Assembly (NCBI GenBank): GCA_030265965.1
Contig: JAJDHA010000002.1
Location: forward strand, 25,580 to 89,579
DNA from: Odoribacter sp. OttesenSCG-928-L07
Lineage (GTDB): Bacteria > Bacteroidota > Bacteroidia > Bacteroidales > BM520
Direction: 5' to 3'
DNA length: 64,000 nt
The notes below the pieces were generated by a model, which did not search any database, was not told the origin of the DNA, and worked only from the letters and a program-made list of their open reading frames with translations. Below, piece after piece: positions 8,369-41,790 of the stretch (the stretch's first letter is position 1; every line of letters starts with the position of its first letter). The translations under genes were made by a program, and so were the position numbers.

Positions 8369-9101
8369 AATAAATGCTGTTGGAATAATTCCGGCTCGAT
8401 ATAACTCGTCTAGATTTCCGGGAAAACCACTCGTTGACATTGACGGCAAAAGCATGATTCATAGAGTTTACGATCAAGCAATGAAATCGAAACTCCTTTC
8501 GAAAGTTTATATTGCTACAGACGATAAAAGAATTTTCGAACATGTAAAGAACTTTACTGACAATGTTTTAATGACTTCCGAAAATCATACAAACGGAACT
8601 GAAAGAGTTGCTGAAGCAATAGAAATACTCGAAGAAAGAAATCTTTTCTTTGACATTGTTGCAAATATTCAAGGCGACGAGCCATACATCTTCCCACAAC
8701 AAATTGATGAAGCATTATCTGTTCTTATTAATAATGAAAATGCGGAAATTGCCACTTTAATTAAAGAAATCAACTTCGAAGATGCAACAGACCCTAACAG
8801 GGTCAAAGTTGTTATTAGTAAGAATAATAAAGCATTATATTTCAGCCGACAAATTATCCCATTTTATAAAGTTGAACCTGAAAAACAAACTTATTACAAG
8901 CATATCGGTTTATATGTTTTCAGAACAATTATTCTTAAAGAAATTGTTAAACTCGATTTTTCGGTTTTAGAACGCGCTGAAAGCTTAGAACAATTAAGAT
9001 GGCTTGATAATGATTATAAAATTTTTGTTGAGTATTCGAATTATGAAACTATAAGTATTGATACTCCGGAAGATTTGAATGTCTTTGTTGGTGACGAGTG
9101 A
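8355..9101 (+). CDS. kdsB: 3-deoxy-manno-octulosonate cytidylyltransferase (CMP-KDO synthetase)
   Basis: IIPARYNSSRFPGKPL, NIQGDEP and an IDTPEDL-like C-terminus. The last codons and the TGA stop (9099-9101) lie inside the GTGACGA array. Confidence 0.9.
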   Translation: MAYSEINAVGIIPARYNSSRFPGKPLVDIDGKSMIHRVYDQAMKSKLLSKVYIATDDKRIFEHVKNFTDNVLMTSENHTNGTERVAEAIEILEERNLFFDIVANIQGDEPYIFPQQIDEALSVLINNENAEIATLIKEINFEDATDPNRVKVVISKNNKALYFSRQIIPFYKVEPEKQTYYKHIGLYVFRTIILKEIVKLDFSVLERAESLEQLRWLDNDYKIFVEYSNYETISIDTPEDLNVFVGDE

Positions 9102-9144
9102 CGAGTGACGAGTGACAAGTGACGAGTGACGAGTGACAAGTGAC
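9091..9144 (+). repeat. GTGACRA heptamer tandem array (about 7.7 units)
   Basis: gtgacga x3, gtgacaa, gtgacga x2, gtgacaa, gtgac. It fills the whole spacer between the convergent kdsB and the 170-aa OMP gene. Confidence 0.95.
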
Positions 9145-9656
9145 TATTTCATGGGAAAGTACACTCCAATTGCAAATGTAAACATCAATGGCATGTCGTC
9201 ATTAAGATTAGTTTTATAGAATGCACGACCTTTCATGACCCTAAACCCAAATCCAACTGAAGCTGTGAATACCTTTTTTGCTCTAAAAACAAACATTGGA
9301 GTTATTAATGCTTGTGTAGTTGAGTTGCCTAATCCCTGATGCCAAAATTGTAGAGACATAAATGAGCTTCTGATATCATTTTCTTTTAAGTGTATATTAA
9401 TGCCTAAGCCGAGACCTAAATATCCAAACCCTACTTGAATTCCAAAAATTTTTGTTGGAAGAACTTCAAAATCAAGGCCTACTAAACTACCTCCACCATG
9501 TAAAAATCCGAATGAGAGTGCAGTCTTTGAATGATCCTGAGAAATAGTATTCTCACTATTCTTATCAATTGTTTGATAGGCTAAAGTATTTTCTTGCGAA
9601 AATCCCACAAAAACAGTTGTCATTAAAAAAAATAATAGTAAAATTCTTTTTTTCAT
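9144..9656 (-). CDS. Small outer-membrane beta-barrel protein (hypothetical)
   Basis: Signal peptide (MKKRILLLFFLMTTVFVGFSQ), alternating Gly/aromatic beta-strand pattern and a C-terminal aromatic-rich strand. No specific family recognised. Confidence 0.5.
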   Translation of the reverse strand: MKKRILLLFFLMTTVFVGFSQENTLAYQTIDKNSENTISQDHSKTALSFGFLHGGGSLVGLDFEVLPTKIFGIQVGFGYLGLGLGINIHLKENDIRSSFMSLQFWHQGLGNSTTQALITPMFVFRAKKVFTASVGFGFRVMKGRAFYKTNLNDDMPLMFTFAIGVYFPMK

Positions 9657-9687
9657 AATTAATTATTATTTAAATTTTCCATTAACC

Positions 9688-9756
9688 CGTCACCCGTCAC
9701 ACGTCACCCGTCACACGTCACACGTCACTCGTCACTCGTCACTCGTCACTCGTCAC
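9688..9756 (-). repeat. GTGACNN heptamer tandem array (about 10 units, read on the minus strand)
   Basis: Plus strand reads cgtcacc cgtcaca cgtcacc cgtcaca cgtcaca cgtcact x4 cgtcac. It lies directly downstream of the 238-aa porin gene stop. Confidence 0.95.
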
Positions 9757-9760
9757 ATTG

Positions 9761-10477
9761 TTAGTCTTTCCTCATGCCAAATTCTTTATTACCAAAGAAA
9801 ACCCATCTCAAACTTATTCCGAACAACTGATTGCATTGTCCTCTTTGCCAAAATGGTTTGCTGAAAGGACCGTATGACCATGCTTGCGGATTATTATATG
9901 ATCTGATTGGAGTCAAGAAAAAAGTTGCCGAATATTTTATGTTTAAAATTAATCTCTCTAAAAGAAAAACTTCAGCTCCGATGTCTATTGATAAATCTAA
10001 CTTACTTAAATCATCATAATAATTACTGAAATCCATAAAGTTTTGGGTGAATTTATGACCGACAAGAATACCAACATTAGGTCCAGCGAACATAGTTATT
10101 CTATCGCTTGCAATAAATTTATAATGAATTGGAACGGTAATATAATGTAAACTTAATCTGGTTTCATAAACTGTTCCGGGTAATGTATCATTAGCATTAG
10201 GGATTTTGCGTGAACCTTTTTGTGTATATGCAACTTCTAAATCCAAAGCACTTCTTTTTGAAAGATATAAGTTGGTAAAAACACCGACATTCAGTCCGGG
10301 TTTGCTAAAAGATCTGTTAAACATCATATTAGAGTTTTGCCCCAACAATGTTGAGTCAACATAGGTACCTGTTGTATGTGAGGCATTTACTCCAAAAGTT
10401 AAGCCCCCGTCAAAGCTTTGGGAAAAAAGTATTACTGAAGATACAGCAAATGCAATTAATAGTAAAAGTTTTTTCAT
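9761..10477 (-). CDS. Porin-family outer-membrane beta-barrel protein (OMP_b-brl_2 / PorT-like)
   Basis: Signal peptide, 238 aa and a beta-strand periodicity pattern (LSLHYITVPIHYKF, FGISLRWVF) similar to the PorT/OMP_b-brl_2 family. Confidence 0.6.
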   Translation of the reverse strand: MKKLLLLIAFAVSSVILFSQSFDGGLTFGVNASHTTGTYVDSTLLGQNSNMMFNRSFSKPGLNVGVFTNLYLSKRSALDLEVAYTQKGSRKIPNANDTLPGTVYETRLSLHYITVPIHYKFIASDRITMFAGPNVGILVGHKFTQNFMDFSNYYDDLSKLDLSIDIGAEVFLLERLILNIKYSATFFLTPIRSYNNPQAWSYGPFSKPFWQRGQCNQLFGISLRWVFFGNKEFGMRKD

Positions 10478-10488
10478 GTTATAAAATG

Positions 10489-10995
10489 TTACACTTTATG
10501 TTTGAATGTTACTTTCGACAGTTCTTCATTTGCTTTAACAATTTTGTTTTTCAAGTTAATCTTATAGTTAACAAGTCTTTCCGCTAAAGCATCATCACCA
10601 ACGGCAACAATTTGTGCTGCAAGTATTGCTGCATTTTGTGCTGCATCAATTCCAACTGTTGCAACCGGAATTCCCGGAGGCATTTGTACAATAGCAAGCA
10701 AAGCATCCATACCTTGTAGAGATGCGCTGATAGGAACTCCAATAACAGGTATTGACGCCATTGCAGCAATTACACCAGGTAGATGTGCAGCCATTCCGGC
10801 GCCGGCAATAATAACTTTTATCCCGCGCGATTTGGCATTCTTTGCAAAATCTTCCACTTCATCCGGAGTGCGATGAGCAGATAAAGCATTCATTTCAAAT
10901 GGAACCTCCATCTCATCCAAGAAAATTGCAGCCTTCTCCATGATTTTTAAATCACTCATGCTGCCCATAATTATACTAACTAAAGCTTTCATCAT
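10489..10995 (-). CDS. purE: 5-(carboxyamino)imidazole ribonucleotide mutase
   Basis: IIMGSMSDLKIM, SAHRTPD and AGMAAHLPGV motifs. The true start is MMKALV (ATG 10995). The 47-codon extension in the track (to 11136) is a read-through of the heptamer array. Confidence 0.9.
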   Translation of the reverse strand: MMKALVSIIMGSMSDLKIMEKAAIFLDEMEVPFEMNALSAHRTPDEVEDFAKNAKSRGIKVIIAGAGMAAHLPGVIAAMASIPVIGVPISASLQGMDALLAIVQMPPGIPVATVGIDAAQNAAILAAQIVAVGDDALAERLVNYKINLKNKIVKANEELSKVTFKHKV

Positions 10996-11011
10996 ACAAA
11001 TTTTTGATTGA

Positions 11012-11019
11012 CAAAGATA
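11012..11019 (-). promoter_or_regulatory. -7 promoter box (TATCTTTG on the minus strand) for purE
   Basis: The reverse complement of caaagata matches TAnnTTTG, 17 nt upstream of the purE ATG. Confidence 0.45.
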
Positions 11020-11035
11020 CAAAATTAATTGGAAA

Positions 11036-11133
11036 GTGACGTGTGACGTGTGACGTGTGACGGGTGACGAGTGACGCGTGACATGTGACATGTGACGAGT
11101 GACGAGTGACGGGTGACATGTGACGAGTGACAA
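11036..11133 (+). repeat. GTGACNN heptamer tandem array, largest copy (14 units)
   Basis: gtgacgt x3, gtgacgg, gtgacga, gtgacgc, gtgacat x2, gtgacga x2, gtgacgg, gtgacat, gtgacga, gtgacaa. It sits in the purE/GH2 divergent intergenic region. Confidence 0.95.
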
Positions 11134-11136
11134 CAC

Positions 11137-11227
11137 ATCCCCGTCAGGGGATTCCGAACGGTAGCCGAAAATGTTTCAATCCCGAAACCATCCCAATCCC
11201 GTCAGGGGATTCCGAACGGTGGCAGCC
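11137..11227 (+). repeat. Two direct copies of a hairpin-containing element (cccgtcaggggattccgaacggt)
   Basis: The 23-nt core occurs at about 11140-11162 and 11198-11220. Each contains the small hairpin (a)tccc(c)-gtca-ggggat. Confidence 0.8.
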
Positions 11228-11263
11228 ATGTAGCGAAAAAATCAATGTTCCAACAATTTTAAT

Positions 11264-11271
11264 TAATTTTG
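11264..11271 (+). promoter_or_regulatory. -7 promoter box TAATTTTG upstream of the GH2 gene
   Basis: TAnnTTTG match 31 nt upstream of the ATG at 11302. Confidence 0.45.
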
Positions 11272-11295
11272 TGGCGAATATTAATGCCAAATTAA

Positions 11296-14469
<3,174 letters not shown>

Positions 14470-14471
14470 AT

Positions 14472-16137: not shown

Positions 16138-16815
16138 ATGAAAACAATTTCATACCAAACAATAGACTCTACTAATATAGAAGCTCAGCGTTTATTAGAT
16201 TCCGGTGAAGATTTGCCTTTTGTTGTTGTTGCAGAAGAGCAAACTCATGGAAAGGGTAGAGGAGAGCATGTTTGGGAAACAGAATCTGGGAAGAACCTTA
16301 CTTGTAGTTTTGTTGTTAAACCTTATGTAGAACCGCAATATCAGTATCTTATTACAGTTGCTACCTCTCTTGCAATCCTTGATTTATTATCACAATACCT
16401 TTCTACTGAAAATCAAATCAAAATAAAATGGCCCAATGATATTTTTGTTGATGATAATAAAATCTGTGGAATTTTAATTGCAAATAGAATCTCTGGAAAC
16501 GAAATTAAATCATCAATTATAGGTATTGGAGTAAATGTTAATCAGATTGATTTTCCTGTGAATTTGCCAAATGCAACTTCATTAAAAAAAATCACTAATA
16601 AAGAATTTGACATAAATGAGTTGTTAAGTGAGTTAATCATCTTGCTTGAAAATAATATTATAATGATTAAGGATAATGTTTTACATCTTCGGGTAAGATA
16701 TATTAGAAACCTATACAAATTACATCAGCCGATGATTTATAATGTTGATGGTGTTGAGATGGAATGCAAGATCTCCGGTATTGATGAGTTTGGCGGAATT
16801 ATGTGTGATAAGTAA
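16138..16815 (+). CDS. birA: Biotin--[acetyl-CoA-carboxylase] ligase (group I, no HTH)
   Basis: Biotin-binding loop QTHGKGRGEHVW, KWPNDI and the ICGILIA pattern. Confidence 0.85.
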   Translation: MKTISYQTIDSTNIEAQRLLDSGEDLPFVVVAEEQTHGKGRGEHVWETESGKNLTCSFVVKPYVEPQYQYLITVATSLAILDLLSQYLSTENQIKIKWPNDIFVDDNKICGILIANRISGNEIKSSIIGIGVNVNQIDFPVNLPNATSLKKITNKEFDINELLSELIILLENNIIMIKDNVLHLRVRYIRNLYKLHQPMIYNVDGVEMECKISGIDEFGGIMCDK

Positions 16816-16825
16816 TGACTGAACA

Positions 16826-16909
16826 ACCACCCGTCACCCGTCACCCGTCACCCGTCACCCGTCACATGTCACACGTCACACGTCACATGTCACACGTCAC
16901 TCATCACCC
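16826..16909 (-). repeat. GTGACNN heptamer tandem array (about 11 units, read on the minus strand)
   Basis: Plus strand reads gtcaccc x4, gtcacat, gtcacac x2, gtcacat, gtcacac, gtcactc, atcaccc. It fills the spacer between the convergent birA and the radical SAM gene. Confidence 0.95.
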
Positions 16910-16911: not shown

Positions 16912-17967
16912 CTATACAACAAAATGGCATTTATCACAAAATTTCGGTGCTTTATTTTCTCTCCACATTTTTCTCCATGCAACAAACTTTTCATTGTTGA
17001 GAACATCCATTACAGAGCTGTCGAATACATTGCCGTAGTTATATTCCTTTGGAAAAGGTTTTGCGCAGCAAGGAGTTATATAGCCGTCCCAACAAATATA
17101 GAAATGACTCCAAGGAAACGGACAATGTTTAAAAGCAGGTTTGTCGTAGAAACTTCTATCGCCAACAGTTACGTTTTTTACTTTCTTTTTAATATTTTCC
17201 AACTCATTTAGAGCTTTAGAAAATTCCTCAGATTTGTAAAAGTCATAATAAGATACATCAACATTTGTGATACAAGCTAAATTAAACTTTGTATAATCCA
17301 TATATTCAACTCCAATTTCTTCAGCATATTCGACAAGTGCTGCCATTTGCAAATAATTTTCTTCAGTAACTACCATATTCATCATCAAGGTAGTATTGGA
17401 ATCCTTTGTGAGTTTTACAAGATTACGAAGATTTTTGTCTAAAGTTTCAAACTTTGCATTAGTTCGTATTCTTTCGTAAACCTCATTTAATCCGTCTGTT
17501 GAAATCTGGATAGTATCTATTTTGCCAACTAATTTAGAAACAATTTCCAGAAAATTTGGTAGCATTGCGTTTGTGGATACAGAAATAATTATACCTTTAT
17601 TTTTTTCTTTAATATAATCTATAATTTGCTCTATATCTTTATATAAGAAAGTTTCTCCCATTCCGGTCAAGCCGATAGAATCTAAATATGGCCAAAGTTC
17701 ATCAATAATTCCTTTCGCTTGATCGACATTGATGGAACCTAAATCCATAGCTTTTCCGTATTCATAAACGCGCGGACAAGTTGTGCATGCAAGATTACAT
17801 TTATTAGTAAGCTCAAGCATAATTGTTGAAGGATAAGCAACTTTGTTCGACTTAATAATTTTATAATAAAAATGTTTGAGCTTATTAAATGAATATTTAA
17901 AGAAATATTTATTTTTTGGTAATTTGGATAATCTTACAAAAGCCTTTTTTAATCTGCGCTTATTCAT
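16912..17967 (-). CDS. Radical SAM / SPASM-domain protein, substrate unknown
   Basis: CNLACTTC (CX3CX2C) after a basic N-terminal extension, a GMGETFLY glycine-rich SAM motif, and a Cys-rich C-terminus (CPFPW...CWDGYITPCC...CDKC) typical of SPASM/twitch auxiliary clusters. Confidence 0.85.
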   Translation of the reverse strand: MNKRRLKKAFVRLSKLPKNKYFFKYSFNKLKHFYYKIIKSNKVAYPSTIMLELTNKCNLACTTCPRVYEYGKAMDLGSINVDQAKGIIDELWPYLDSIGLTGMGETFLYKDIEQIIDYIKEKNKGIIISVSTNAMLPNFLEIVSKLVGKIDTIQISTDGLNEVYERIRTNAKFETLDKNLRNLVKLTKDSNTTLMMNMVVTEENYLQMAALVEYAEEIGVEYMDYTKFNLACITNVDVSYYDFYKSEEFSKALNELENIKKKVKNVTVGDRSFYDKPAFKHCPFPWSHFYICWDGYITPCCAKPFPKEYNYGNVFDSSVMDVLNNEKFVAWRKMWRENKAPKFCDKCHFVV

Positions 17968-18907: not shown

Positions 18908-19019
18908 TAAATTAACTTTTATTTTTATACTTTGTTCGCTTTAAAGCAAAAATCATTAAATCACAAACCCTTCAAGATAAAAACCTTGAACCATAATCCT
19001 TCAAACCTTGAACCTTAAA

Positions 19020-20000
19020 CTAAACCAACACCTTCGCTTCAATTTCCGCTGCAAGTTCAGGATTATCAACAAGGATTTGCACTACCGCATCTCTTCCTTG
19101 ACCGAGTTTTGTGTCACCATAGCTATACCAAGATCCACTTTTCTTTACCACATTAAGATTTACAGCAATATCGAGCAGTTCACCCATTCTTGAGATTCCT
19201 TTTCCAAACATAATATCAAATTCGGCAACTTTAAAAGGTGGAGCAACTTTATTTTTTACAACTTTTACTTTTACTCGATTACCAACTGCGTCATCACCAT
19301 CTTTAATTTGTGATACTCGGCGAATATCAAGACGTATTGAAGAGTAGAACTTCAGAGCATTACCTCCTGTTGTTGTTTCAGGATTTCCGAACATTACTCC
19401 GATTTTTTCCCGTAATTGATTAATAAAGATGCAGCATGAGCCTGTTTTAGAAATCGTAGCTGTTAACTTTCTAAGTGCTTGCGACATGAGGCGAGCTTGT
19501 AATCCAACTTTGTTTTCTCCCATTTCGCCTTCAATTTCGCTTTTTGGAGTAAGTGCTGCTACAGAGTCAATAACAATAATATCGATAGAGCCTGATCTAA
19601 TTAGCGCGTCAGCAATTTCTAGTGCTTGTTCTCCACAATCGGGTTGTGAAACTAACAGGTTTTCAATATCTACTCCGAGTCTTTGGGCATAGAATCTGTC
19701 GAATGCGTGTTCAGCATCAATAAACGCTGCTAAACCGCCATTTTTTTGTGCTTGTGCAATTGCGTGCAGTGCCAGAGTTGTTTTACCAGAGGCTTCCGGA
19801 CCGTATATTTCAACAATTCTTCCCTTAGGATATCCTTTAACTCCGAGAGCAATATCTAGTCCGATAGAACCCGAAGGAATAACCGGAACACTTTCTATTT
19901 CAGTATCACCCAATTTCATAACGGTACCTTTACCGTAAGCTTTTTCGATTCTGTCGAGGGTGAGTTGTAAAGCTTTTAATTTTTCTGAATTATTATCCAT
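19020..20000 (-). CDS. recA: Recombinase A
   Basis: Near-full identity to conserved RecA blocks ([30 protein letters not shown]). Confidence 0.97.
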
Positions 20001-20912: not shown

Positions 20913-21015
20913 AGATTAATTTTAGTTAAACAACATTTTACATATTGATAACGAGGATCAAATATAAAAATTGTATGAATGAGGGTATTTTTTTTGGATT
21001 TGAGAAAGGGGCGAG

Positions 21016-21070
21016 GAGAATGGAGAATTGAGAATGGAGAATTGAGAATTGAGAATTGAGAATGGAGAAG
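21016..21070 (+). repeat. Tandem heptamer array GAGAATK (about 8 units)
   Basis: gagaatg gagaatt gagaatg gagaatt x3 gagaatg gagaag read directly. Confidence 0.9.
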
Positions 21071-21117: not shown

Positions 21118-21163
21118 CATCAAATCATCACATCATCAAATCATCACATCATTAAATCATCAC
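21118..21163 (-). repeat. Tandem 8-mer array (GTGATGAT/TTGATGAT on the minus strand) directly after the sigma-factor stop
   Basis: Plus strand reads catcaaat catcacat catcaaat catcacat cattaaat catcac. Confidence 0.85.
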
Positions 21164-21753
21164 TATCTTTCGAGTAATGTAATGTTCTGTTCTTCAATAA
21201 TTTTTCTAAGATTAATTATTGCATACCTCATTCTTCCGAGAGCGGTATTAATGCTAACATTAGTAAGTGCGGCGATATCCTTAAAGCTGAGGTCGCAGTA
21301 ATGACGAAGTTTAACTACTTCTTTTTGTTCTTCGGGAAGTAGCTCAAGTAATTCGAGCAGTTGTTGCTCTTGTTGTTTCTTTATAAGAGTGTCTTCAATA
21401 GAATCAACCATAAAATCATTTAGTTCTGCGATGTTTTCAACATCAACAGCTCCCATTGTTCCAAGTCGTTTTTCTTTTCGGTAATTGTCAATTATAAGGT
21501 TATGTGCAATACGATTTATCCATTGAATAAACTTTCCCTCTTCTTTATAAACGCCTGAACGAAGAGTTTGAATTACCTTAATAAAAGTTTCTTGAAAGAT
21601 ATCATCGGCAAGCGCGCTATCTTTGACAATCATTAAAATGTAAGAGTAAACTTTTCCCTTATATCTATTAACCAAAACTTCCATGCTAAACATATCACCC
21701 TTGAGATAGTTGGCAATAAGTTCATTATCTGATAAATTAAAATTTTCTTTCAT
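21163..21753 (-). CDS. RNA polymerase sigma-70 factor, ECF-like subfamily
   Basis: Region 2 (DDIFQETFIKV, WINRIAHNLIIDNYR) and region 4 HTH (LSFKDIAALTNVSINTALGRMRYA). Confidence 0.85.
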   Translation of the reverse strand: MKENFNLSDNELIANYLKGDMFSMEVLVNRYKGKVYSYILMIVKDSALADDIFQETFIKVIQTLRSGVYKEEGKFIQWINRIAHNLIIDNYRKEKRLGTMGAVDVENIAELNDFMVDSIEDTLIKKQQEQQLLELLELLPEEQKEVVKLRHYCDLSFKDIAALTNVSINTALGRMRYAIINLRKIIEEQNITLLER

Positions 21754-23667: not shown

Positions 23668-24207
23668 TCATTCGATATTAAAATTTAGTTCCGGCGAATA
23701 TAAATGCGATTCCAATTCTAACAGTTTCCTTTTAGCTTGAAGTCCACCGGCATATCCAACTAATTCTCTGTTGCTTCCAATTATTCTATGACATGGAATA
23801 ATAATGGATATTGCATTTGCTCCATTTGCCGATGCAACTGCTCGAATTGCATTGACATTGTTTAGACGTTTGGATAAATCCATGTAAGATGCAGTTTTTC
23901 CATAAGGAACTTTTAACAGCTCATCCCAAACACTTTTTTGAAACTCTGTCCCAATCATTAAAAATGGAATGTCAAATTGAGTTCTTTGTTTGTTAAAATA
24001 TTCTTCCAGCTGAGAAATTGCAATTTGAATAACATCCGAATTTTCTTCAACATATTCTGATTTTAAACTCTTTTGTATCCGTGAATCAATTGTACTTCTT
24101 GATTTTCTGTACTTCCAGTCGCATAAACACAATTGCTCATTGAAAGATCCGATAATTAATTCTCCGTAAGGAGATTTATAATATTGTATTTTTATGGTTT
24201 GATTCAT
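23668..24207 (-). CDS. ogt: Methylated-DNA--protein-cysteine methyltransferase
   Basis: Active-site IPCHRIIG, with YGKTASY and GGL..KR.LLELE patterns. Confidence 0.9.
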   Translation of the reverse strand: MNQTIKIQYYKSPYGELIIGSFNEQLCLCDWKYRKSRSTIDSRIQKSLKSEYVEENSDVIQIAISQLEEYFNKQRTQFDIPFLMIGTEFQKSVWDELLKVPYGKTASYMDLSKRLNNVNAIRAVASANGANAISIIIPCHRIIGSNRELVGYAGGLQAKRKLLELESHLYSPELNFNIE

Positions 24208-24251
24208 GATTTGAAGATTTGAAAATTTGAAGATTTGAAAATTTGAAGATT
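24208..24251 (+). repeat. Tandem 8-mer array TTTGAARA (about 5 units)
   Basis: ga tttgaaga tttgaaaa tttgaaga tttgaaaa tttgaaga tt. It fills the whole ogt/DUF1697 spacer. Confidence 0.9.
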
Positions 24252-24807
24252 ATTTTGTTAATGATAATAGTTTGTTGATTGTTTTCCAGTTGCGGACGGT
24301 GTTTGTTGTGTTTATTTTTTGCAAAGTAGCAGCGAGTTTAGAAAAACGCATGCTATCAGTAAAACGCATATACATATTGTTGTTGATTATTTTAAACGAT
24401 TCATTTTCAGACATGACATTAGATAATTTCTTTATTTCTTCTTCAGAAGGAGAATCATTAAATAAAGCAACATAAAATACTTCTACTTCTTTGTCGGCTT
24501 CAGCAATTTCGATTTCAGTTTTAGAGTATGGGCATTGAGACACAATTTGCTCAAATTCTTGAAAAGTTCTTATTATGACAGGAACATGAAATCCATAATG
24601 TTTGTAAATATTTTCTTCAATTTCCTTTTGAATAACTTCTTTGATTTTTTCTGATTCAAATAAAATGTTGCCGCTTTGAATAAAAGTTCGAATATTTTTT
24701 AAACCATTACCAGAAAGATATTGCCTCAAATCAGCCATTTTAATAATGTTTTTTCCGCCGACATTAATACCTTTTAAAAAGGCGATATAGTTTTTTATTT
24801 CATTCAT
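24250..24807 (-). CDS. DUF1697 family protein
   Basis: YIAFLKGINVGGKNIIKMADLR N-terminus is characteristic of DUF1697. The ATG at 24807 is preferred to the TTG at 24822. Confidence 0.8.
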   Translation of the reverse strand: MNEIKNYIAFLKGINVGGKNIIKMADLRQYLSGNGLKNIRTFIQSGNILFESEKIKEVIQKEIEENIYKHYGFHVPVIIRTFQEFEQIVSQCPYSKTEIEIAEADKEVEVFYVALFNDSPSEEEIKKLSNVMSENESFKIINNNMYMRFTDSMRFSKLAATLQKINTTNTVRNWKTINKLLSLTK

Positions 24808-24970
24808 CTTCTGAAAAGTCAAAACGGACCCATTAATATCAGTTGTTCCATAAAATGTAGTCTCAAGTCCTTTGGTGATATTGAATCCATTTTCTTGATT
24901 TATTTAATTATTGATGTAAATTTTTATTTTTATTTCGAAACAAAAGTAATCATTTTTAAGAGAATTTTTA

Positions 24971-25003
24971 ACTTTCACTTTTCACTTTTCATCTTTCACT
25001 TTA
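24971..25003 (-). repeat. Tandem heptamer array GTGAAAR (minus strand; plus strand reads ctttcac ttttcac ttttcat ctttcac)
   Basis: Read directly from the sequence. It lies just upstream of the EamA promoter box. Confidence 0.85.
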
Positions 25004-25052: not shown

Positions 25053-25970
25053 ATGAAAAATAAAGCCAGATTTAAAGGCATTTTATTCGGCATAATTGCT
25101 GCTGTCGCTTACGGAACAAATCCGCTTTTTTCTTTGCCGCTTTATGCTGAAGGATTGTCTCCCGACTCGGTACTGTTTTATCGATATGGAATAGGTGTTA
25201 TTCTTCTCGGTATAATACTCCTTATCAAAGGAGAATCTTTGAAAATCCAGAAAAAGGAAATTTTGCCTTTACTTATTTTCGGGATAATTTTTGCCTGCTC
25301 ATCACTATTTCTATACCAAAGTTTTCTATATATGGATGCTGGAATAGCCTGCACAATACTATTTATTTATCCGGTATTAGTTGCAGTGATTATGGCTGTG
25401 TTTTTCAAAGAAAAAGCATCGTGGCTAACATATTCTTGTATTATCTTGGCAATGATAGGAATTGCTTTGTTATACAGAGGTAACGGAGATACAACATTAA
25501 GTACAACCGGATTAATATTGGTCGCGCTGTCATCTCTTTGTTATGCCATTTATATTGTTGCTGTTGATCATTCAAGAATACGAACAATGTCATCAACAAA
25601 GATGACCTTCTGGATATTAGTTTTCGGCAGCATTGTTTTTATAGTTCGTACCAGATTTTTATCAGAATTGCAATTGGTTCCGCCAACGTTTTACAGCTGG
25701 GTTAATGCGATAGGAATTGCGCTGTTCCCAACAATTATTTCATTGCTTTTTATAAATATTTCCATAAAAAACATAGGTCCGACTTTCGCAGCAATTTTTG
25801 GCGCTCTCGAACCGGTAACCGCTCTAATAATAGGCGTATTTGTGTTTCACGAAGCTATAACAGTACGAATAGTTATTGGTGCACTTTTAATTCTAATTGC
25901 TGTTACGCTTGTTGTTTCAGGAAATAATATTCTTGCTTTTTTTGGAAAAAAATCTATAAAGGAAAATTAA
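25053..25970 (+). CDS. EamA/DMT family transporter
   Basis: Ten hydrophobic segments and two EamA-like halves. The start is moved to MKNKARFKG. Confidence 0.8.
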   Translation: MKNKARFKGILFGIIAAVAYGTNPLFSLPLYAEGLSPDSVLFYRYGIGVILLGIILLIKGESLKIQKKEILPLLIFGIIFACSSLFLYQSFLYMDAGIACTILFIYPVLVAVIMAVFFKEKASWLTYSCIILAMIGIALLYRGNGDTTLSTTGLILVALSSLCYAIYIVAVDHSRIRTMSSTKMTFWILVFGSIVFIVRTRFLSELQLVPPTFYSWVNAIGIALFPTIISLLFINISIKNIGPTFAAIFGALEPVTALIIGVFVFHEAITVRIVIGALLILIAVTLVVSGNNILAFFGKKSIKEN

Positions 25971-30039: not shown

Positions 30040-30063
30040 ACGCGCACGTCAGTGCGTCTCTAC
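30040..30063 (-). repeat. Degenerate copy of the GTAGAGACG...CGTCTC palindrome
   Basis: Plus strand gacgcgcacgtcagtgcgtctctac. The right arm is identical to the 40408-40441 palindrome and the left arm is decayed. Confidence 0.6.
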
Positions 30064-30127
30064 GCGTCACACGTAACTTCACAATCCGTCACACGTCACT
30101 CGTCACCCGTCACACGTCACTTGTCAC
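30064..30127 (-). repeat. GTGACNN heptamer tandem array (about 9 units, some degenerate)
   Basis: Plus strand gcgtcac acgtaac ttcacaa tccgtcac acgtcac tcgtcac ccgtcac acgtcac ttgtcac. The imelysin TGA stop (30124-30126) lies in the first unit. Confidence 0.9.
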
Positions 30128-31245
30128 TCCACAACCTCATCAATCAAAGAAAGTTGATCCAGCAAGTTATTACAAGCATCCATCGCCGCCTCAATCATTG
30201 GTGCACTTGCCGGATTATCAAGTTGGTTTCTGAAAGGAGAAGGAATATCTTTTATAGCGTTAATTGCAGTTTCAATTGCCTCCAAGATATCTTTATCCAA
30301 TTGCTCGTTTTTACTATTAACATAATCGCTCAAAGATTTTCCGGTTCTATAACCTTCCATTCCTCCCAAATAAGAGTTTTCGATGCTGATAATATTATTA
30401 GTGAAATCATCTAAAGAGTTCCAACTATACCAAGACTCAACACGAAGAACATTTTTTGTTTCGTATGGATCGGCAATTTTCTCGTTTCCAACTTCGTCTG
30501 CAATAGTCTCACATCCGCCAATGATTTCACGAACAGCTTGTTGCGGAGTTTTGAAACGACTACCTGCAGAACCCGCATTTAGCATTTCATAACCGAAATT
30601 AGAAGATATTTCAAGTTCAGCTTCTTCTAATATCCTTTTTTTAGTCGAACTAATATCATCAGTCCAAGATGCTTCCAAGAGAACACAATCTTCCATCAGA
30701 ACACCTGCAACAGCAACAAGATAAATCAATTCATTAGTTGTAATTTTAGAAACATCTTTTGCTTGTCCATTTTCAAAAAGGACGTATTCGATTGCATGAA
30801 AACCGATGAGATTTACACCATAATAAACGCGGGCATGTGGTGCGTCAACTCCGGTCATGTCTTTAGCAAGCTCTTGATCCAGAGTGTTTTTGTCGAGGGG
30901 CCATGAGTCAATACGAGGATCCAATGAGTTGTATTCTGCCGGTCCATAAAGGAAAGCCTCACTCAATTCCCAGTATTTGCGAGCTTCTTTCCATTTGTTC
31001 GCAGCTGCCAATACATTTGCATCTGTTGGTGATTCTTGAAGATTTTCACATAACTCAAACAAATCTATTGCATTGTTTGCCAATAAATTATAAGTTTTAA
31101 TTACAGTGTTGTTGGTATATACATCTAAGATTTCCAACATTTCTTTGTCGTCTTCTTCAATCGTGCCACCTCCACACGAACTTAAATTAAACACAAGAAT
31201 TAATGCCATTGAGGCAAATAAAAAATTTTTCAAATTGTTTTTCAT
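30124..31245 (-). CDS. Imelysin family lipoprotein (peptidase M75 / EfeO/IrpA-like)
   Basis: Lipobox (LSSC) and the conserved GFHAIEYVLF (HxxE) motif, with imelysin-like length. Confidence 0.85.
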   Translation of the reverse strand: MKNNLKNFLFASMALILVFNLSSCGGGTIEEDDKEMLEILDVYTNNTVIKTYNLLANNAIDLFELCENLQESPTDANVLAAANKWKEARKYWELSEAFLYGPAEYNSLDPRIDSWPLDKNTLDQELAKDMTGVDAPHARVYYGVNLIGFHAIEYVLFENGQAKDVSKITTNELIYLVAVAGVLMEDCVLLEASWTDDISSTKKRILEEAELEISSNFGYEMLNAGSAGSRFKTPQQAVREIIGGCETIADEVGNEKIADPYETKNVLRVESWYSWNSLDDFTNNIISIENSYLGGMEGYRTGKSLSDYVNSKNEQLDKDILEAIETAINAIKDIPSPFRNQLDNPASAPMIEAAMDACNNLLDQLSLIDEVVE

Positions 31246-35337: not shown

Positions 35338-35347
35338 GGCTTATTTA

Positions 35348-35378
35348 GTTGAAAGTTGAAAGTTGAAAAGTGAAAATT
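35348..35378 (+). repeat. Tandem heptamer array GTTGAAA x3 plus AGTGAAA
   Basis: gttgaaa gttgaaa gttgaaa agtgaaa read directly. Confidence 0.9.
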
Positions 35379-36370: not shown

Positions 36371-36384
36371 TAGTTTTGATTGCT

Positions 36385-36392
36385 TATCTTTG
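36385..36392 (+). promoter_or_regulatory. -7 promoter box TATCTTTG upstream of the nitroreductase gene
   Basis: TAnnTTTG match 34 nt upstream of the ATG at 36426. Confidence 0.5.
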
Positions 36393-36425
36393 CATTCAAT
36401 CTATTAACAAATAAAATATTTTCTT

Positions 36426-37010: not shown

Positions 37011-37024
37011 AATTTAACCCTACA

Positions 37025-37046
37025 CTCGTCACACGTCACTAATCAC
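37025..37046 (-). repeat. Short GTGACNN array (3 units)
   Basis: Plus strand ctcgtcac acgtcac taatcac. Confidence 0.7.
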
Positions 37047-37087
37047 AATAAATTCCAATTTTCTCCGTTGATATTTGAAAAAAACAG

Positions 37088-37095
37088 TAATTTTG
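37088..37095 (+). promoter_or_regulatory. -7 promoter box TAATTTTG upstream of the exbB/exbD/tonB/folC block
   Basis: TAnnTTTG match 45 nt upstream of the ATG at 37140. Confidence 0.45.
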
Positions 37096-37139
37096 CACTC
37101 GATTCAAAAATAATTCAATTTACAATAAAATAGAAAAAT

Positions 37140-37850: not shown

Positions 37851-37857
37851 TTGAGTT

Positions 37858-38274: not shown

Positions 38275-38285
38275 TAATTTAGAAT

Positions 38286-39110
38286 ATGAAGCTTAAAGAT
38301 AGAGCATCTCTAACGGGTATAATAGCCACCTTACTCATACACGCAGCTGTAATAATTGCTTGTATCTTACTTGCGTTTGTTACTCCATTGCCTTTACCCG
38401 GCGAAGAAGGTGTTGAAGTTATGCTCGGTTCATCAAGTTCCGGTAGCGGTAATGATATACTTTTTGAGAAACCTAATGTAAAACCTGTCGCTCCAAGTCA
38501 ACCAAGTTCTTCACAACAAGAATCTGTTAAAACATCAAATTCTGACGACGAGATTTTTATGCCGGAAGAAAGCGATAACAAAACCGAACAAGATCATGCA
38601 GAATTGATCGATGAACAAGATAACTCGCAACAAAACGAACATGACCAAATTGTTCAAAACGAACCGGAAGTAGAACCGGAACCTGTTGTTAATCCGAATG
38701 CTTTGTATAAAGGCTCATCTTCAAATAATGATAATAATCAAAGTGGTTCTGTTGGAAATGATGGAACACCTGGCTCTGTCTATGGTTCTCCGAATTCCAC
38801 AAATGAATCAGGTTTAGGCGGTGCCGGCGGCGGAATATCGTTCAGCCTTGATGGAAGAAGTTCCGTTCATCTACCAAAACCAATCTATGATTCCCAAGAA
38901 CAAGGCAGAATAGTTGTTGAGATTCAAGTAAACAAAAAAGGCGATGTTATTAAAGCTGTCGCGGGTAAATCTGGAACAACAATTATGGATCAAAGTCTGT
39001 GGGCAAAAACCGAATCTGCAGCGCTGAAAACAAAATTCTCACCAAATCCAAAAGCATCAGAAATACAAATAGGCACAATCACTTATAACTTCCGTAGAGT
39101 TAATGAATAA
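38286..39110 (+). CDS. TonB-family energy transducer (C-terminal domain protein)
   Basis: N-terminal TM anchor, a long Pro/Glu/Gln/Ser-rich linker and a C-terminal about 80-aa TonB_C-like module (GRIVVEIQVNKKGDVIKA). Confidence 0.7.
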   Translation: MKLKDRASLTGIIATLLIHAAVIIACILLAFVTPLPLPGEEGVEVMLGSSSSGSGNDILFEKPNVKPVAPSQPSSSQQESVKTSNSDDEIFMPEESDNKTEQDHAELIDEQDNSQQNEHDQIVQNEPEVEPEPVVNPNALYKGSSSNNDNNQSGSVGNDGTPGSVYGSPNSTNESGLGGAGGGISFSLDGRSSVHLPKPIYDSQEQGRIVVEIQVNKKGDVIKAVAGKSGTTIMDQSLWAKTESAALKTKFSPNPKASEIQIGTITYNFRRVNE

Positions 39111-40404
39111 TGATAGACTCAATCGCGAATACCAAGAATGTATTGAATTTCTATTTTCGCGTTTGCCGATGTATCAAAGAATAGGCAAAGCAGCATACAA
39201 AGCAGATCTCAATAATATTATTTCACTTTGCAATTATCTTGGAAATCCACAAGATAATCTCAAATTTATCCATGTCGCCGGAACTAACGGCAAAACATCT
39301 GTTTCGCATTATTTAGCTTCGATTTTTGAAAAAGCAGGCTACAAAACAGGACTTTACACTTCGCCACATCTCATTGATTTTCGCGAAAGAATATTAGTCA
39401 ACAGCAAAATGATAGACAAAAAATATGTCTGCGATTTTGTTGAAAAACACAAAGATTTTATCTTAGATTGTCAGCCTTCATTTTTTGAAATTACAGTAGC
39501 AATGGCTTTTCAATATTTCAAAGATGAGAATATCAATTGTGCAATTATTGAAGTTGGACTCGGCGGCAGGCTCGATTCTACGAATATAATTAATCCCGAA
39601 TTATCAGTAATTACTAACATTGGTTTTGATCATACTGAATTTCTTGGTAATGATTTAAAATCAATCGCCGGAGAAAAAGCCGGAATTATTAAAGAAAATA
39701 CTCCAATAATTATCAGCGAAACGCAAGATGATATTAAAGATGTGTTTATTGATAAAGCTAAGAATCTAAACGCCACTATTTTCTTTGCCGATAAAATCAT
39801 TGAAGTCTCTAATATTGAACATTCTATTGACAACTTACAACTTCAATGTTTTTCTTCTTTTAGCAATAACCATTATAACCTTAGTAGCAATCTTGCCGGA
39901 CTTTATGAAGTAAAAAATATTCGCGCTGTTGTTTTAGCAATTGAAATTTTAAGAGGTAGATTTAATATTTCCGATGAAGCATTAATTGCCGGACTTCACT
40001 CAACTGTTTTGCGCGGCAGATGGGAAAAATTGGGTAACGATCCTTTAGTTATTTGCGATACAGGACATAATGTAGATGGCATAAAAGAAGTTGTTAATTG
40101 CTTAACATCATTGGAGTATAATAAATTACATATTGTTATTGGTGCTGTTGGCGACAAAGATCTTGATAATATTATTCAACTTCTTCCAAAAGATGCGACA
40201 TATTATTTTTGCAAACCATCTATTCCTCGCGGAATGGATGTTGAAGTCTTAAAGTCGAAATTTGAAACCGTTAAAATAACCGGCGAAAGCTTTCCTTCTT
40301 GTTATGACGCATACTTAGCGGCAAAAGAAAATGCCGACAAAAATGATGTCATTTTCATCGGCGGTAGTACTTTTGTTGTTGCGGATGTGTTGGAGAAAAT
40401 ATAA
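39103..40404 (+). CDS. folC: Bifunctional folylpolyglutamate synthase / dihydrofolate synthase
   Basis: HVAGTNGKTS P-loop and Mur-ligase-like middle and C-terminal domains. Confidence 0.9.
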   Translation: MNNDRLNREYQECIEFLFSRLPMYQRIGKAAYKADLNNIISLCNYLGNPQDNLKFIHVAGTNGKTSVSHYLASIFEKAGYKTGLYTSPHLIDFRERILVNSKMIDKKYVCDFVEKHKDFILDCQPSFFEITVAMAFQYFKDENINCAIIEVGLGGRLDSTNIINPELSVITNIGFDHTEFLGNDLKSIAGEKAGIIKENTPIIISETQDDIKDVFIDKAKNLNATIFFADKIIEVSNIEHSIDNLQLQCFSSFSNNHYNLSSNLAGLYEVKNIRAVVLAIEILRGRFNISDEALIAGLHSTVLRGRWEKLGNDPLVICDTGHNVDGIKEVVNCLTSLEYNKLHIVIGAVGDKDLDNIIQLLPKDATYYFCKPSIPRGMDVEVLKSKFETVKITGESFPSCYDAYLAAKENADKNDVIFIGGSTFVVADVLEKI

Positions 40405-40407
40405 TTC

Positions 40408-40441
40408 GAAGTAGAGACGCACGGCCGTGCGTCTCTACTTC
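40408..40441. repeat. Perfect 34-bp palindrome GAAGTAGAGACGCACGG|CCGTGCGTCTCTACTTC (possible bidirectional terminator)
   Basis: The two 17-nt arms are exact reverse complements. It lies 3 nt after the folC stop and is followed by a heptamer array. Confidence 0.85.
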
Positions 40442-40505
40442 TAGTCACACGTCACTTGTTACTTGTCACACGTCACTTGTCACACGTCACACGTCACACA
40501 TCAGT
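40441..40505 (-). repeat. GTGACNN heptamer tandem array (about 9 units)
   Basis: Plus strand tagtcac acgtcac ttgttac ttgtcac acgtcac ttgtcac acgtcac acgtcac acatcag tcac. The TGA stop of the small Arc-like ORF lies at its edge. Confidence 0.9.
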
Positions 40506-40668
40506 CACCCTTCGCTCTCTTGCTCTTTTTCAACGCCTGATCAAGTATCCACAATATTTGTCCGTTAGTGCTGCGAAACTCATCCTGCGCCCACTTCTCG
40601 ATAGCTGCAAGTTTATCTGCATCTATTCGCAATACAAAAGCCTTAGTCTCGTTTTTCTTTTCAGGCAT
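40501..40668 (-). CDS. Small Arc/MetJ-like ribbon-helix-helix protein (55 aa), not in the ORF track
   Basis: Manual translation gives MPEKKNETKAFVLRIDADKLAAIEKWAQDEFRSTNGQILWILDQALKKSKRAKGD. The beta-strand then two-helix pattern is like the Arc family. It starts 14 nt after the SPFH stop on the same strand. Confidence 0.55.
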   Translation of the reverse strand: MPEKKNETKAFVLRIDADKLAAIEKWAQDEFRSTNGQILWILDQALKKSKRAKGD

Positions 40669-40682
40669 TTCATTCTATTTTA

Positions 40683-41585
40683 TTAATACAAAGTTCCGGT
40701 ATTTATTATCGGTTGAGCGGCATCATCAGCACAAAGCACAACCATCAAATTACTAACCATGCTGGCTTTTTTATCTTCATCAAGAGTAACAACTTCTTTC
40801 TCGGATAATTTGTTTAATGCAAGCTCTACCATGCTAACTGCGCCTTCAACAATTTTTTCACGTGCAGCAATAATAGCAGATGCTTGTTGGCGACGTAACA
40901 TTGCTCCCGCAATTTCTGACGCATAAGCCAAATAATTAATTCTCGCTTCAACAACTTTTATTCCTGCCATTGCTAATCTGTCAATTAATTCGAGCTCTAA
41001 TTTTTCATTAACCTCGTCACTATTAGCGCGCAAAGTAGCAAGGTTGTCATGTTCATCATCAATGTTATCATAAGGATACATTCCGGCAACTTTGCGTAGA
41101 GCAGCATCACTTTGAACCCTTACAAATTTTTCATAAGCAAATCTGTTCTTAGCATCATTCTCGATATCGAACATAATTTTGTAGGTATCTTCGATTTTCC
41201 AAACCAAAACTAACCCAATCATAATAGGATTACCTATTTTATCATTAACCTTAATTGGATCAGGATCAATATTACAGATTCTTTGAGAGACTTTTTTCTT
41301 ACTGAACAATGGATTTACCCAAAAGAAACCATTTTTCTTAATAGTTCCTTTGTAAACACCAAAAAACAGAAGAACACACGCCTGATTCGGCTCAATTAGC
41401 ACATATCCTATTGAAAAAAAGACAAACAATAAAATAGCAACAAAACCAGGAATGAGCCATAATTCATTACCGCTTTTGTCAACTTGTACAAAAAATAGAA
41501 TTGCTGCAACAACTAACAACAATTCAATAAAAACCATCAACAACCCGTTAACAGTTACACCGCTGAATTTCATTTCTTTGTTCAT
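40683..41585 (-). CDS. SPFH/Band 7 (stomatin/prohibitin-like) domain membrane protein
   Basis: Two N-terminal TM helices followed by an SPFH core and a coiled C-terminal region ([25 protein letters not shown]). The start is moved to MNKEMKF because the track start overlaps the promoter box. Confidence 0.8.
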
Positions 41586-41621
41586 AATATTAAATTTTAA
41601 ATTGATATCATTTTGATATTG

Positions 41622-41629
41622 CAAAGATA
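41622..41629 (-). promoter_or_regulatory. -7 promoter box (TATCTTTG on the minus strand) for the SPFH/Arc-like pair
   Basis: The reverse complement of caaagata lies 37 nt upstream of the ATG at 41585. Confidence 0.5.
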
Positions 41630-41718
41630 TTAAATATTTTTAATATGCAAGTGAAATAATAGACAAAATGACAGAATTTTTCAGAATTAACAATTTTTTT
41701 ATTTAGAAATGAAAGCGT

Positions 41719-41790
41719 GCGTCGTCACTCGTCACTTGTCACTCGTCACTTTTCAAAATAATTTTCAACTTTCAACTTTCAACTTTCAAC
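41719..41790 (-). repeat. GTGACNN array (4 units, 41719-41749) followed by a GTTGAAA array (4 units, 41762-41790), both read on the minus strand
   Basis: Plus strand gtcgtcac tcgtcac ttgtcac tcgtcac ... tttcaac x4. Confidence 0.9.

Follow-up and report, generated by a model that had tools for sequence, protein, structure and literature searches.

GTGACRN heptanucleotide arrays in an Odoribacter genome as probable slippage-driven spacer fillers placed by the stop-codon content of their strands

The heptameric short tandemly repeated repetitive (STRR) sequences of cyanobacteria, with units such as CCCCAGT, TTGGTCA and CAACAGT, were reportedly described by Mazel et al. in 1990. They comprise several unit families per genome and occupy many dispersed intergenic sites, with units that were defined in heterocystous species. 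In this study, we have analyzed a 64-kb stretch of DNA from Odoribacter sp. OttesenSCG-928-L07 (the window; contig JAJDHA010000002.1 of GCA_030265965.1, positions 25,580 to 89,579), in which tandem arrays of the heptanucleotide GTGACRN are found at eight loci within 33 kb. These arrays resemble STRR sequences in being dispersed, intergenic tandem heptamers that share their genome with other unit families; unlike STRR sequences, they have the unit GTGACRN, a Bacteroidales host from another phylum, and a fixed 5-nt core followed by a free 2-nt spacer. We consider it probable that the arrays are lineage-specific, slippage-driven and largely neutral fillers of intergenic spacers, the placement of which is set by the stop-codon content of the strand.

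Heptanucleotides are the commonest class of long simple sequence repeats (LSSRs) in prokaryotes, according to the summary of Mrazek (2007) given in PMC4679880. As presented in that summary, LSSRs have units of 5 to 11 nt and, like the GTGAC arrays, are tandem, head to tail, mainly intergenic, sporadic and lineage specific, with period 7 favored; they constitute a descriptive class with no defined unit, unlike the GTGACRN family. The arrays reported here are likewise head-to-tail repeats of a unit in this size range that run longer than expected by chance.

Two better-defined heptamers have also been described. In Xanthomonas and Nostoc, GGGNATC heptamers are reported on the sense strand no farther than 50 bp from stop codons (PMC4692102), and the GGGNATC and GGGGAYT repeats (Rehm et al. 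2015, PMC4692102) share with the GTGAC arrays a heptameric unit, over-representation in noncoding DNA and a variable unit number. The repeats of that family are defined by G-quadruplex formation and favor four units (PMC4692102), and five GGGTGAC repeats in the fourth of our arrays have the same G3N4 form. However, GG follows the core in only 12 of 61 canonical GTGAC units, the collectively commoner GA, GT and AA variants cannot form G3 tracts, and runs of at least four GTGACGG units were found only in array 4 of the window and array 2 of the same-species contig L122. The second heptamer, TAACTGA, forms direct repeats in marine Beggiatoaceae, some Cyanobacteria and five Bacteroidetes (MacGregor 2015, PMC4679880). 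Like GTGAC, it is intergenic and carries stop codons on one strand while its complement is open, and the corresponding spacers of close relatives are shorter and lack the repeats; the TAACTGA-bearing spacers of Gramella and Aequorivita also hold other heptamer repeats (PMC4679880). TAACTGA arrays mostly have 2 to 6 units that lie "forward" just upstream of starts, whereas GTGAC arrays have 3 to 14 units and lie mainly just past stops. In the literature searched, neither the GTGACRN unit nor a Bacteroidales host was found, and a search for GTGAC heptamer dimers gave no bacterial paper, only plant PCR primers. Because both the unit and the host differ, the GTGAC arrays fall outside the named unit families; they are a new unit family in the already known class of heptanucleotide simple sequence repeats (LSSRs or variable-number tandem repeats [VNTRs], STRR-like). 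The initial annotation, which had been made from the sequence alone, had regarded them as an unnamed dispersed family nearest to the cyanobacterial STRR sequences; that placement holds, with other heptanucleotide repeats now added to the comparison.

The existence of the arrays is not in doubt. A search for three consecutive GTGACRN units with at most one mismatch gave 46 overlapping matches in the window, every one of them within eight loci (numbered here 1 to 8 along the window), and none in 100 dinucleotide shuffles of the same DNA. Independently, Tandem Repeats Finder (TRF) recovered seven of these loci as arrays of period 7, copy numbers being 4 to 13.7 and scores 51 to 143 (9091-9144, 9688-9756, 11036-11131 with 13.7 copies, 16828-16909, 30087-30129, 40444-40503 and 41722-41750); the locus without a call, 37025-37046, is a weak array of three units. 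The eight positions of the initial annotation were therefore recovered, except that at array 5 only 30086-30127 is clean (6 units) and 30064-30085 is degenerate. Read in phase, the arrays comprise 68 units, 61 of which have the exact GTGAC core, and the seven deviant units lie at array edges, bar one internal GTAAC. Positional entropy is 0.19 to 0.51 bit at positions 1 to 5, 1.19 at position 6 and 1.61 at position 7, in agreement with the earlier description of a near-invariant core followed by two variable positions; the dinucleotides at these positions (GA, 18; GT, 16; GG, 12; AA, 7; AT, 5; TA, 2; GC, 1) also match those first listed. All arrays in the window are intergenic, as had been claimed, save for overlaps with stop codons, and all are purely direct repeats; palindromic elements of the REP/BIME type were not found among them.

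Inspection shows that TGA occurs in each of the three frames of the GTGAC strand and that the complement is stop free, as the initial annotation had pointed out. Phantom open reading frames (ORFs) of VTRH repeats, such as 10489-11136(-) and 40456-40686(+), arise at the arrays because the complement lacks stops. We rejected the stop-free strand as coding sequence: the purE homologues in contigs L120, L122 and L123 encode 167 to 168 amino acids (aa), so the true start is an internal ATG and the array-containing extensions are phantoms.

The propensity to form tandem arrays is specific for a period of 7 nt, and sometimes 8 nt, and not for GTGAC. A census of segments with at least four units and at most one mismatch between neighboring units identified 12 period-7 and two period-8 segments in the window, and none of period 5, 6, 9 or 10. 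The same census of 57.8 kb from relatives yielded no segments at periods 5 to 10, and block-shuffled copies of the window gave none of periods 6 to 10 and a mean of 0.4 at period 5. Since the window also holds unrelated 7- to 8-nt units, the explanation moves away from a GTGAC-specific element; the census, which agrees with the published dominance of heptanucleotide units among prokaryotic LSSRs, points to a lineage-specific, register-specific repeat-forming process over a device that reads GTGAC. TRF also detected multi-unit super-periods of 14, 21 and 28 nt in the window, which indicate block duplications; array 3 is one locus with a period-28 super-repeat. The GTGAC-centered view taken at the outset was thus right about the arrays themselves and missed the arrays of other 7- to 8-nt units.

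Comparison with same-species sequences showed that the arrays mutate far faster than their flanks. The window KdsB protein is 100% identical to that of Bacteroidales bacterium OttesenSCG-928-K22, and the Arc-like protein encoded next to array 7 has a counterpart of 100% identity that is named from Odoribacter sp. OttesenSCG-928-L07. We compared contigs L122 and L129 (GCA_030265935.1), L123 and L130 (GCA_030266045.1) and L131, a contig from a separate public sequencing run (L numbers are our labels for contigs and loci outside the window). L122/L129 and L123/L130 overlap parts of the window with flanks that are 99.4 to 99.85% identical, and the same-species contigs carry arrays at the same sites. 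Among seven comparable arrays, arrays 1 to 3 vary in unit number or order; arrays 4 (in L122), 6 (in L129), 7 (in L129, L130 and L131) and 8 (in L129 and L130) are identical. The comparison of unit counts between strains that had been proposed at the outset gave 14 units for array 3 in the window versus 6 in both L122 and L123, a difference of 56 bp. Array 2 has 10 units in all three genomes, with a different order of spacer variants in each, and the array 1 allele of L122 and L123 differs from that of the window by a unit swap and a 10-nt insertion. The copy-number and unit-order polymorphism expected of a heptanucleotide VNTR is therefore present at arrays 1 to 3, and the earlier suggestion of a slippage hot spot is borne out by these differences between genomes whose flanks are, in rounded figures, 99.4 to 99.9% identical. 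An anchored flank-plus-array pattern returned no further alleles from the JGI metagenomes.

The syntenic kdsB-porin-purE regions of relatives with KdsB identities of 76% (L120/L121), 70% (L125) and 66% (L124) lack GTGAC arrays, and in L125 the kdsB gene and the convergent porin gene overlap by 4 nt. Because the arrays occupy the same sites within the species and are absent from these relatives, they are young, species-level insertions into originally tiny spacers. The conservation of array positions that the initial annotation had set as a criterion accordingly holds within the species and fails in the nearest syntenic relatives.

Two alternative explanations bear directly on this variation. 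The first is that the arrays are artefacts of whole-genome amplification or single-cell assembly, since the "SCG" tag of the source genomes is one that we take to denote a single-cell genome, and a short-read assembly can collapse repeats in a way that could account for 14 versus 6 units. However, three independent assemblies, as well as L131, have the same arrays in the same positions, and related arrays occur in many unrelated metagenome-assembled genomes (MAGs) and isolate genomes, so that an artefactual origin is scarcely credible. The second is that the arrays are contingency loci, in which the unit number would switch or tune adjacent genes by phase variation, by analogy with the heptanucleotide repeats upstream of hmw1A and hmw2A of Haemophilus influenzae. 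Phase variation through such repeats is documented (PMC8262952); array 3, with its 56-bp length difference between strains, lies in the divergent region of purE and a GH2 gene, and arrays 1 and 2 flank outer-membrane beta-barrel genes. Nevertheless, no 7-nt unit was found in a coding frame, and none lies between core promoter elements, the TAnnTTTG boxes that we read by eye being outside the arrays. Five of the eight arrays are downstream of stop codons, most neighboring genes have housekeeping and not contingency functions, and arrays 4, 6, 7 and 8 are invariant among the strains. We therefore regard a phase-variable function as very improbable.

Five genes end directly upstream of an array on the GTGAC strand (kdsB, the 238-aa porin gene, the radical SAM gene, the imelysin gene and the Arc-like gene), as the initial annotation had noted, and four end at arrays on the side that reads GTCAC (the 170-aa ORF and the LipB-family, FolC-like and nitroreductase genes). 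Three of the five co-oriented cases are convergent pairs and are therefore uninformative; of the three informative, co-directional cases, two are sense and one is antisense. When the window was pooled with low-GC loci of other genomes, 20 sense and 13 antisense gene tails were counted (p=0.30). The five co-oriented genes are real; co-orientation as a signal is not significant. The real asymmetry is in the distance to the stop codon: the stop lies inside the array or within 5 nt of it in 14 of the 20 sense genes versus 1 of the 13 genes on the stop-free side (Fisher p=0.0009), and the asymmetry is also seen outside the window alone (Mann-Whitney p=0.007). In three genes the array encodes the last one to three residues together with the stop, namely, those for KdsB (GDE*), imelysin and the Arc-like protein (GD*), and these tails replace C termini that are not conserved among homologues. 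Arrays of two other TGA-containing units, AGTTGAA (2295) and TGATGATK (21162), also begin 0 to 1 nt past a sense stop.

In the model that we favor, slipped-strand mispairing or unequal recombination probably adds, removes and rearranges one to four units at a time, in a genome that is markedly prone to form tandem arrays of period 7 and, now and then, period 8. The arrays would persist only where they are harmless, which is in divergent promoter regions and in the very short spacers that follow genes. On the simplest reading, which invokes selection, if the spacer ahead of a GTGAC-strand array were lost, the gene would acquire a new stop within a few codons; because TGA in all frames would make such a loss harmless, arrays would come to touch or to supply the stop of the upstream gene. 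Loss of a stop beside the open strand, on the other hand, would append a long repeat tail to the protein, so the neighboring gene on that side would have to keep its own stop and a gap would remain. Under this model the arrays most probably have no dedicated function. They may still have incidental effects, in the form of a G-rich, imperfectly hairpinned 3' untranslated region (UTR), a C-rich, unstructured opposite transcript and length polymorphism upstream of promoters.

For the neighbors of the individual arrays, the gene names of the initial annotation (kdsB, porin, radical SAM, imelysin and Arc-like) were confirmed. Array 1 (9091-9146, +; 8 units of GTGAC followed by GA, AA or TA) fills the entire convergent gap between kdsB (+) and the 170-aa ORF (-): the kdsB stop, TGA (9099-9101), lies inside unit 2, and the final unit runs into the TAG (9144-9146, minus strand) of the 170-aa ORF. 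Array 2 (9687-9756, -; 10 units) is in the sense orientation between co-directional genes, beginning 4 nt past the TAA of the 238-aa outer-membrane beta-barrel gene (9761-10477, -) and ending 30 nt ahead of the ATG of the 170-aa ORF. The 14 units of array 3 (11036-11133, +) occupy the divergent region between purE (-) and the GH2 gene (+), directly upstream of the TAnnTTTG-like boxes of both genes. Right after this array, in the 5' region of the GH2 gene, CCGTCAGGGGATTCCGAACGGT occurs in two exact copies (11141-11162 and 11199-11220); CCGTCAGGGGATTCCGAACGGT contains a CCCC-GTCA-GGGG hairpin, has 0 copies expected in shuffles and has no Rfam match.

Array 4 (16824-16909, -; 12 units, 10 of them canonical) separates the convergent LipB-family gene (+; stop at 16813-16815) and radical SAM/SPASM gene (-; TAG at 16912-16914), and it begins 2 to 4 nt past the latter stop. 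Within it, five consecutive GTGACGG units on the minus strand (16826-16866) provide six G3 tracts separated by TGAC loops of 4 nt, which amounts to a canonical G-quadruplex motif resembling the Xanthomonas and Nostoc GGGNATC repeats, and a similar run is present in array 2 of L122. Array 5 (30065-30127, -) consists of 6 clean units (30086-30127) and 3 degenerate ones, and its first unit provides the TGA (30124-30126) that terminates the imelysin gene. Array 6 (37026-37046, -), the weakest member, has the three units GTGATTA, GTGACGT and GTGACGA and lies 14 nt past the stop of a nitroreductase-family gene (+), in the antisense orientation. Array 7 (40442-40506, -) has 8 units and a leading GTGACTG, the TGA of which (40501-40503) is the stop of the 55-aa Arc-like ORF, convergent with a FolC-like gene (+). 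Array 8 (41722-41749, -; 4 units) lies between the divergent SPFH/Band_7 gene (-) and TsaD-family gene (+; Pfam PF00814) and adjoins an array of four TTTCAAC units. The named neighbors thus comprise KdsB, the outer-membrane beta-barrel protein, PurE, GH2, LipB-family, radical SAM/SPASM, imelysin and Arc-like proteins, together with a di-haem oxidoreductase (DHOR) family protein, the nitroreductase, a FolC-like Mur ligase, SPFH/Band_7 and TsaD-family proteins.

Classified by junction, array regions account for 3 of 9 convergent, 2 of 8 divergent and 3 of 40 co-directional gene pairs. The convergent gaps with arrays measure 42, 96 and 96 nt, approximately the array length, and the six without arrays range from -17 to 15 nt, with a single exception of 653 nt. 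The tight convergent pairs in that range (5407/5423, 23661/23668, 25954-25970, 46155/46159 and 52801/52814) leave no room for a terminator. A consensus terminator scan of 8-18 kb, the region of arrays 1 to 4, detected none at the arrays and a total at chance level, and the sequences 3' of the arrays have no T runs; we therefore rejected the arrays as intrinsic terminators, and neither that scan nor a search for perfect GC-rich palindromes, of which the window has one, gave evidence for a terminator or for the insulator proposed earlier. Termination in this genome may rely on something other than intrinsic terminators. We also rejected a known RNA family, since the whole window gave no Rfam match at the gathering threshold and the surroundings of array 3 gave none at E<=1.

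A subtler role at the RNA level may be considered, in which the arrays would be elements of transcription-unit ends: a hairpin of the GUGAC strand would protect or define the 3' end of the upstream mRNA, and the opposite strand would load Rho, stopping read-through or antisense transcription between packed and often convergent genes. Predicted folding is strongly asymmetric between the strands, the GUGAC strand forming long imperfect hairpins (-19 to -49 kcal/mol; z of -0.6 to -4.4) and the C-rich GUCAC strand being essentially unstructured (-5 to -31 kcal/mol; z between -1.6 and +1.9), with, by inspection, about three C residues per G in each unit. The chance-level count of hairpin-plus-T terminators in 8-18 kb, the single perfect palindrome in the window, the small size of the array-free convergent gaps and the enrichment of arrays at convergent and divergent junctions (p=0.04) are also consistent with such a role. 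Against it, there is no U tract past the arrays; downstream of arrays 5 and 7, and of the array L029 of a Bacteroidales MAG, there are GC-rich hairpins distinct from the arrays, which argues that the array is not itself a terminator; and array 1 folds no better than its shuffles (z, -0.6). Moreover, most convergent pairs do without arrays, the arrays are hypervariable and missing in relatives, and unrelated units that are rich in AT form arrays in this genome, too. We consider this RNA-level role unlikely, be it as a 3'-UTR hairpin or as a Rho-loading site for the opposite transcript.

Hairpins follow two of the arrays. A perfect 34-nt palindrome, GAAGTAGAGACGCACGG/CCGTGCGTCTCTACTTC, is located at 40408-40441, directly 3' of array 7 and between it and folC, and no other perfect GC-rich hairpin occurs in the window. 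On the 3' side of array 5, and directly next to it, a GC-rich imperfect hairpin at ~30040-30063 contains a related half-copy motif, GTAGAGACGCAC..GTGCGCGTC. These hairpins are possibly the real terminators of the transcripts concerned.

Several observations weigh against neutral, slippage-driven spacer filling. Uniform mutation combined with slippage does not predict a core entropy of 0.2 to 0.5 bit beside 1.2 to 1.6 bits at positions 6 and 7, and the uniformity of the core points to constraint acting on GTGAC, to a founder effect or to hypermutability of the spacer positions. The presence of one unit family at eight sites in 33 kb requires a route of dispersal beyond slippage, and array 2, for all its internal rearrangement, has exactly 10 units in each of three strains. 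The enrichment of arrays at convergent plus divergent junctions (5 of 17, versus 3 of 40 co-directional) could reflect a role at transcription-unit borders, and, with no terminator hairpins found in the scanned stretch around arrays 1 to 4, the arrays occupy the sites where 3'-end signals would be expected. In addition, the sample consists of 64 kb and ~30 kb of overlapping same-species contigs, and these are short-read assemblies, taken by us to be of amplified single cells, in which some unit-count differences could be assembly collapse. The contrast between core and spacer, the dispersal, the constant length of array 2 and the border enrichment thus keep a cis-acting role alive; at the RNA and DNA levels combined, such a role is possible, if on balance rather unlikely.

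At the DNA level, the closest analogy is the omega protein of pSM19035, a ribbon-helix-helix (RHH) ParB protein that binds 7 to 10 contiguous WATCACW heptads, one RHH dimer to each, with at least 4 needed for full activity (PMC9499535). By this analogy, the GTGAC arrays would be double-stranded binding sites for one RHH-type dimer per heptad and could act as an operator, a roadblock or a centromere-like site. The architecture is indeed comparable: both have a 7-bp period, a conserved 5-bp core, two variable flanking positions and at least four contiguous units, and the reverse complement of WATCACW, WGTGATW, is close to the NGTGACR found here, GTGAT standing against GTGAC (PMC9499535). An Arc-like RHH ORF ends in array 7, array 8 lies ~95 nt upstream of its operon, and other phyla have both direct and matched inverted heptad arrays with the same core.

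However, the omega sites, in which direct and inverted heptads are combined, coincide with promoters of three plasmid genes, and their cognate protein is proven (PMC9499535). The GTGAC arrays, in contrast, lie on the chromosome and consist of direct repeats alone; most of them are at the 3' ends of genes and not over promoters, and no genetically linked cognate RHH protein was identified. Across the Bacteroidales, the Arc-like protein is conserved as a partner of the SPFH/Band_7 gene (67 to 85% identity); its operons in L126 and L127/L128 lack heptads, and tblastn found no homologue in any of the 119 array-bearing loci listed. As a cognate binder the Arc-like gene is therefore unsupported, and a search of PDB sequences gave it only a weak match to Arc. 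Being flanked by arrays is not unusual here, since the 170-aa ORF and the porin-purE segment are likewise flanked; other units form equivalent arrays in the same genome, and control heptamers are as common elsewhere. The protein-binding array suggested by the initial annotation thus acquired no dedicated binder when Arc-like homologues were checked across array loci and operons, and we judge it highly unlikely that the arrays are RHH-type binding sites. The pairing of an SPFH/Band_7 gene with a following Arc-like RHH gene of 54 to 57 aa (67 to 85% identity in the small protein) is a conserved Bacteroidales feature, located at 40501-41624 in the window, 3042-4165 in L126 and 3027-4174 in L127/L128.

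Four-unit GTGACRN arrays were found at a minimum of 119 loci in GTDB representative genomes. Bacteroidales MAGs (L026, L029 and L040) carry arrays of 13 to 19 units with the same pattern of fixed core and free spacer, and the other matches listed include Saprospiraceae, cyanobacteria, Shewanella, Clostridium and many Acidobacteriota. In several of these genomes core variants such as GTAAC, ATAAC and GTGGC propagate within arrays, and the core is therefore not universally constrained. Composition-matched four-unit patterns were used as controls in IMG/VR viral contigs, where GTGACRN occurs at 61 loci, GTCACRN at 22, GAGTCRN at 28, GGTACRN at 6 and CAGTGRN at at least 120. We therefore rejected GTGAC as a universally privileged core, as CAGTGRN is commoner and the other controls are within tenfold; GTGAC is common and not uniquely privileged. 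The much commoner CAGTGRN arrays of viral contigs (L212 to L291, e.g., L215 and L257) reach up to 7 per ~10-kb contig.

A further arrangement was seen in other phyla, in which (GTGACNN)3-6 and (NNGTCAC)3-11 form convergent inverted pairs around a spacer of 13 to 153 nt. There are 29 cases, mostly in Pyrinomonadaceae/Acidobacteriota (including L002, L046, L059, L069, L081, L086, L089, L092, L100, L115 and L116); in 17 of them the arms match at 90% or more, with the "free" positions included, so that long perfect hairpins are possible, and in some a second heptad family, AATCGTG/CGATTCA, is nested inside. The inverted pairs look like a distinct, undescribed hairpin element. It is conceivable, and in our estimation quite improbable, that GTGAC heptads are a cis-acting code in a 7-nt register that is read by an RHH-type DNA binder or a ring-shaped RNA binder. 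The heptads would then mark transcription-unit borders, and the invariant core beside a free spacer would be the footprint of the factor. If so, the direct arrays of Bacteroidales and the inverted hairpins of Pyrinomonadaceae would belong to one widespread, undescribed class of heptad-built elements.

If the GTGAC arrays are simply a repeat family, they still offer hypervariable markers for strain typing in an uncultured Bacteroidales lineage. They also call for caution in annotation, since they spawn phantom VTRH-repeat ORFs and supply the real stops of three genes. A lineage with arrays of exactly 7 or 8 nt, set against same-order relatives with none in the regions examined, offers a natural and clean comparison in which to ask why heptanucleotide repeats prevail among bacterial LSSRs, a question of long standing that sets the step size of polymerase slippage against selection and extends to how one unit reaches many loci. 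The asymmetry in stop distance, in turn, is a simple, testable selective rule for where arrays settle and in which orientation.

The other unit families occupy similar positions in the window. AGTTGAA (3.7 copies; 2295-2320, +) lies 1 nt past the TAA of the TGT gene, with its TGA-containing unit in the sense orientation, and recurs with 3.1 copies in a divergent region (35347-35368, +). The octamer TGATGATK (5.6 copies; 21118-21162, -; TRF consensus CATCAAAT on the + strand) directly follows the TAG of the ORF at 21163-21753(-), and its TGA-containing unit is likewise in the sense orientation; GGAGAAT (7.9 copies; 21015-21069, +) is in the same long spacer. A second octamer, TTCAAATY (5.5 copies; 24208-24251, -), fills its spacer, spanning from the TAA of the ORF at 24250-24822(-) to the ATG of the ORF at 23668-24207(-). 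TTTCACT (4.3 copies; 24973-25002, +) is located in a divergent region, AAACCTT (5.6 copies with 70% matches; 18981-19020, +) is in a co-directional spacer, and the array adjoining array 8 consists of 4.1 copies of TTTCAAC, the reverse complement of GTTGAAA (41763-41791, +).

Base composition changes along the window, which has a G+C content of ~33% overall. The last 12 kb (52000-64000) fall to 25 to 30% G+C and have no heptamer arrays, all eight GTGAC arrays lying within 9-42 kb. With the arrays excluded, GTGAC and GTCAC hold ranks 14 and 21 among the 1,024 pentamers for under-representation, with a combined 14 occurrences versus 24.2 expected under a Markov model with hand-set masks and 16 versus 24.7 with a regular-expression mask; GTAAC and GTTAC show no depletion. 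Avoidance of GTSAC as a restriction site was rejected, as the depletion is mild, involves small numbers and is inconsistent in related loci. Finally, the window lacks, at ~5064-5066, a 1.4-kb insertion sequence-like element that L122 (JAJDGW010000003.1) carries at 5333-6709, with rve integrase and HTH_Tnp_1 ORFs.

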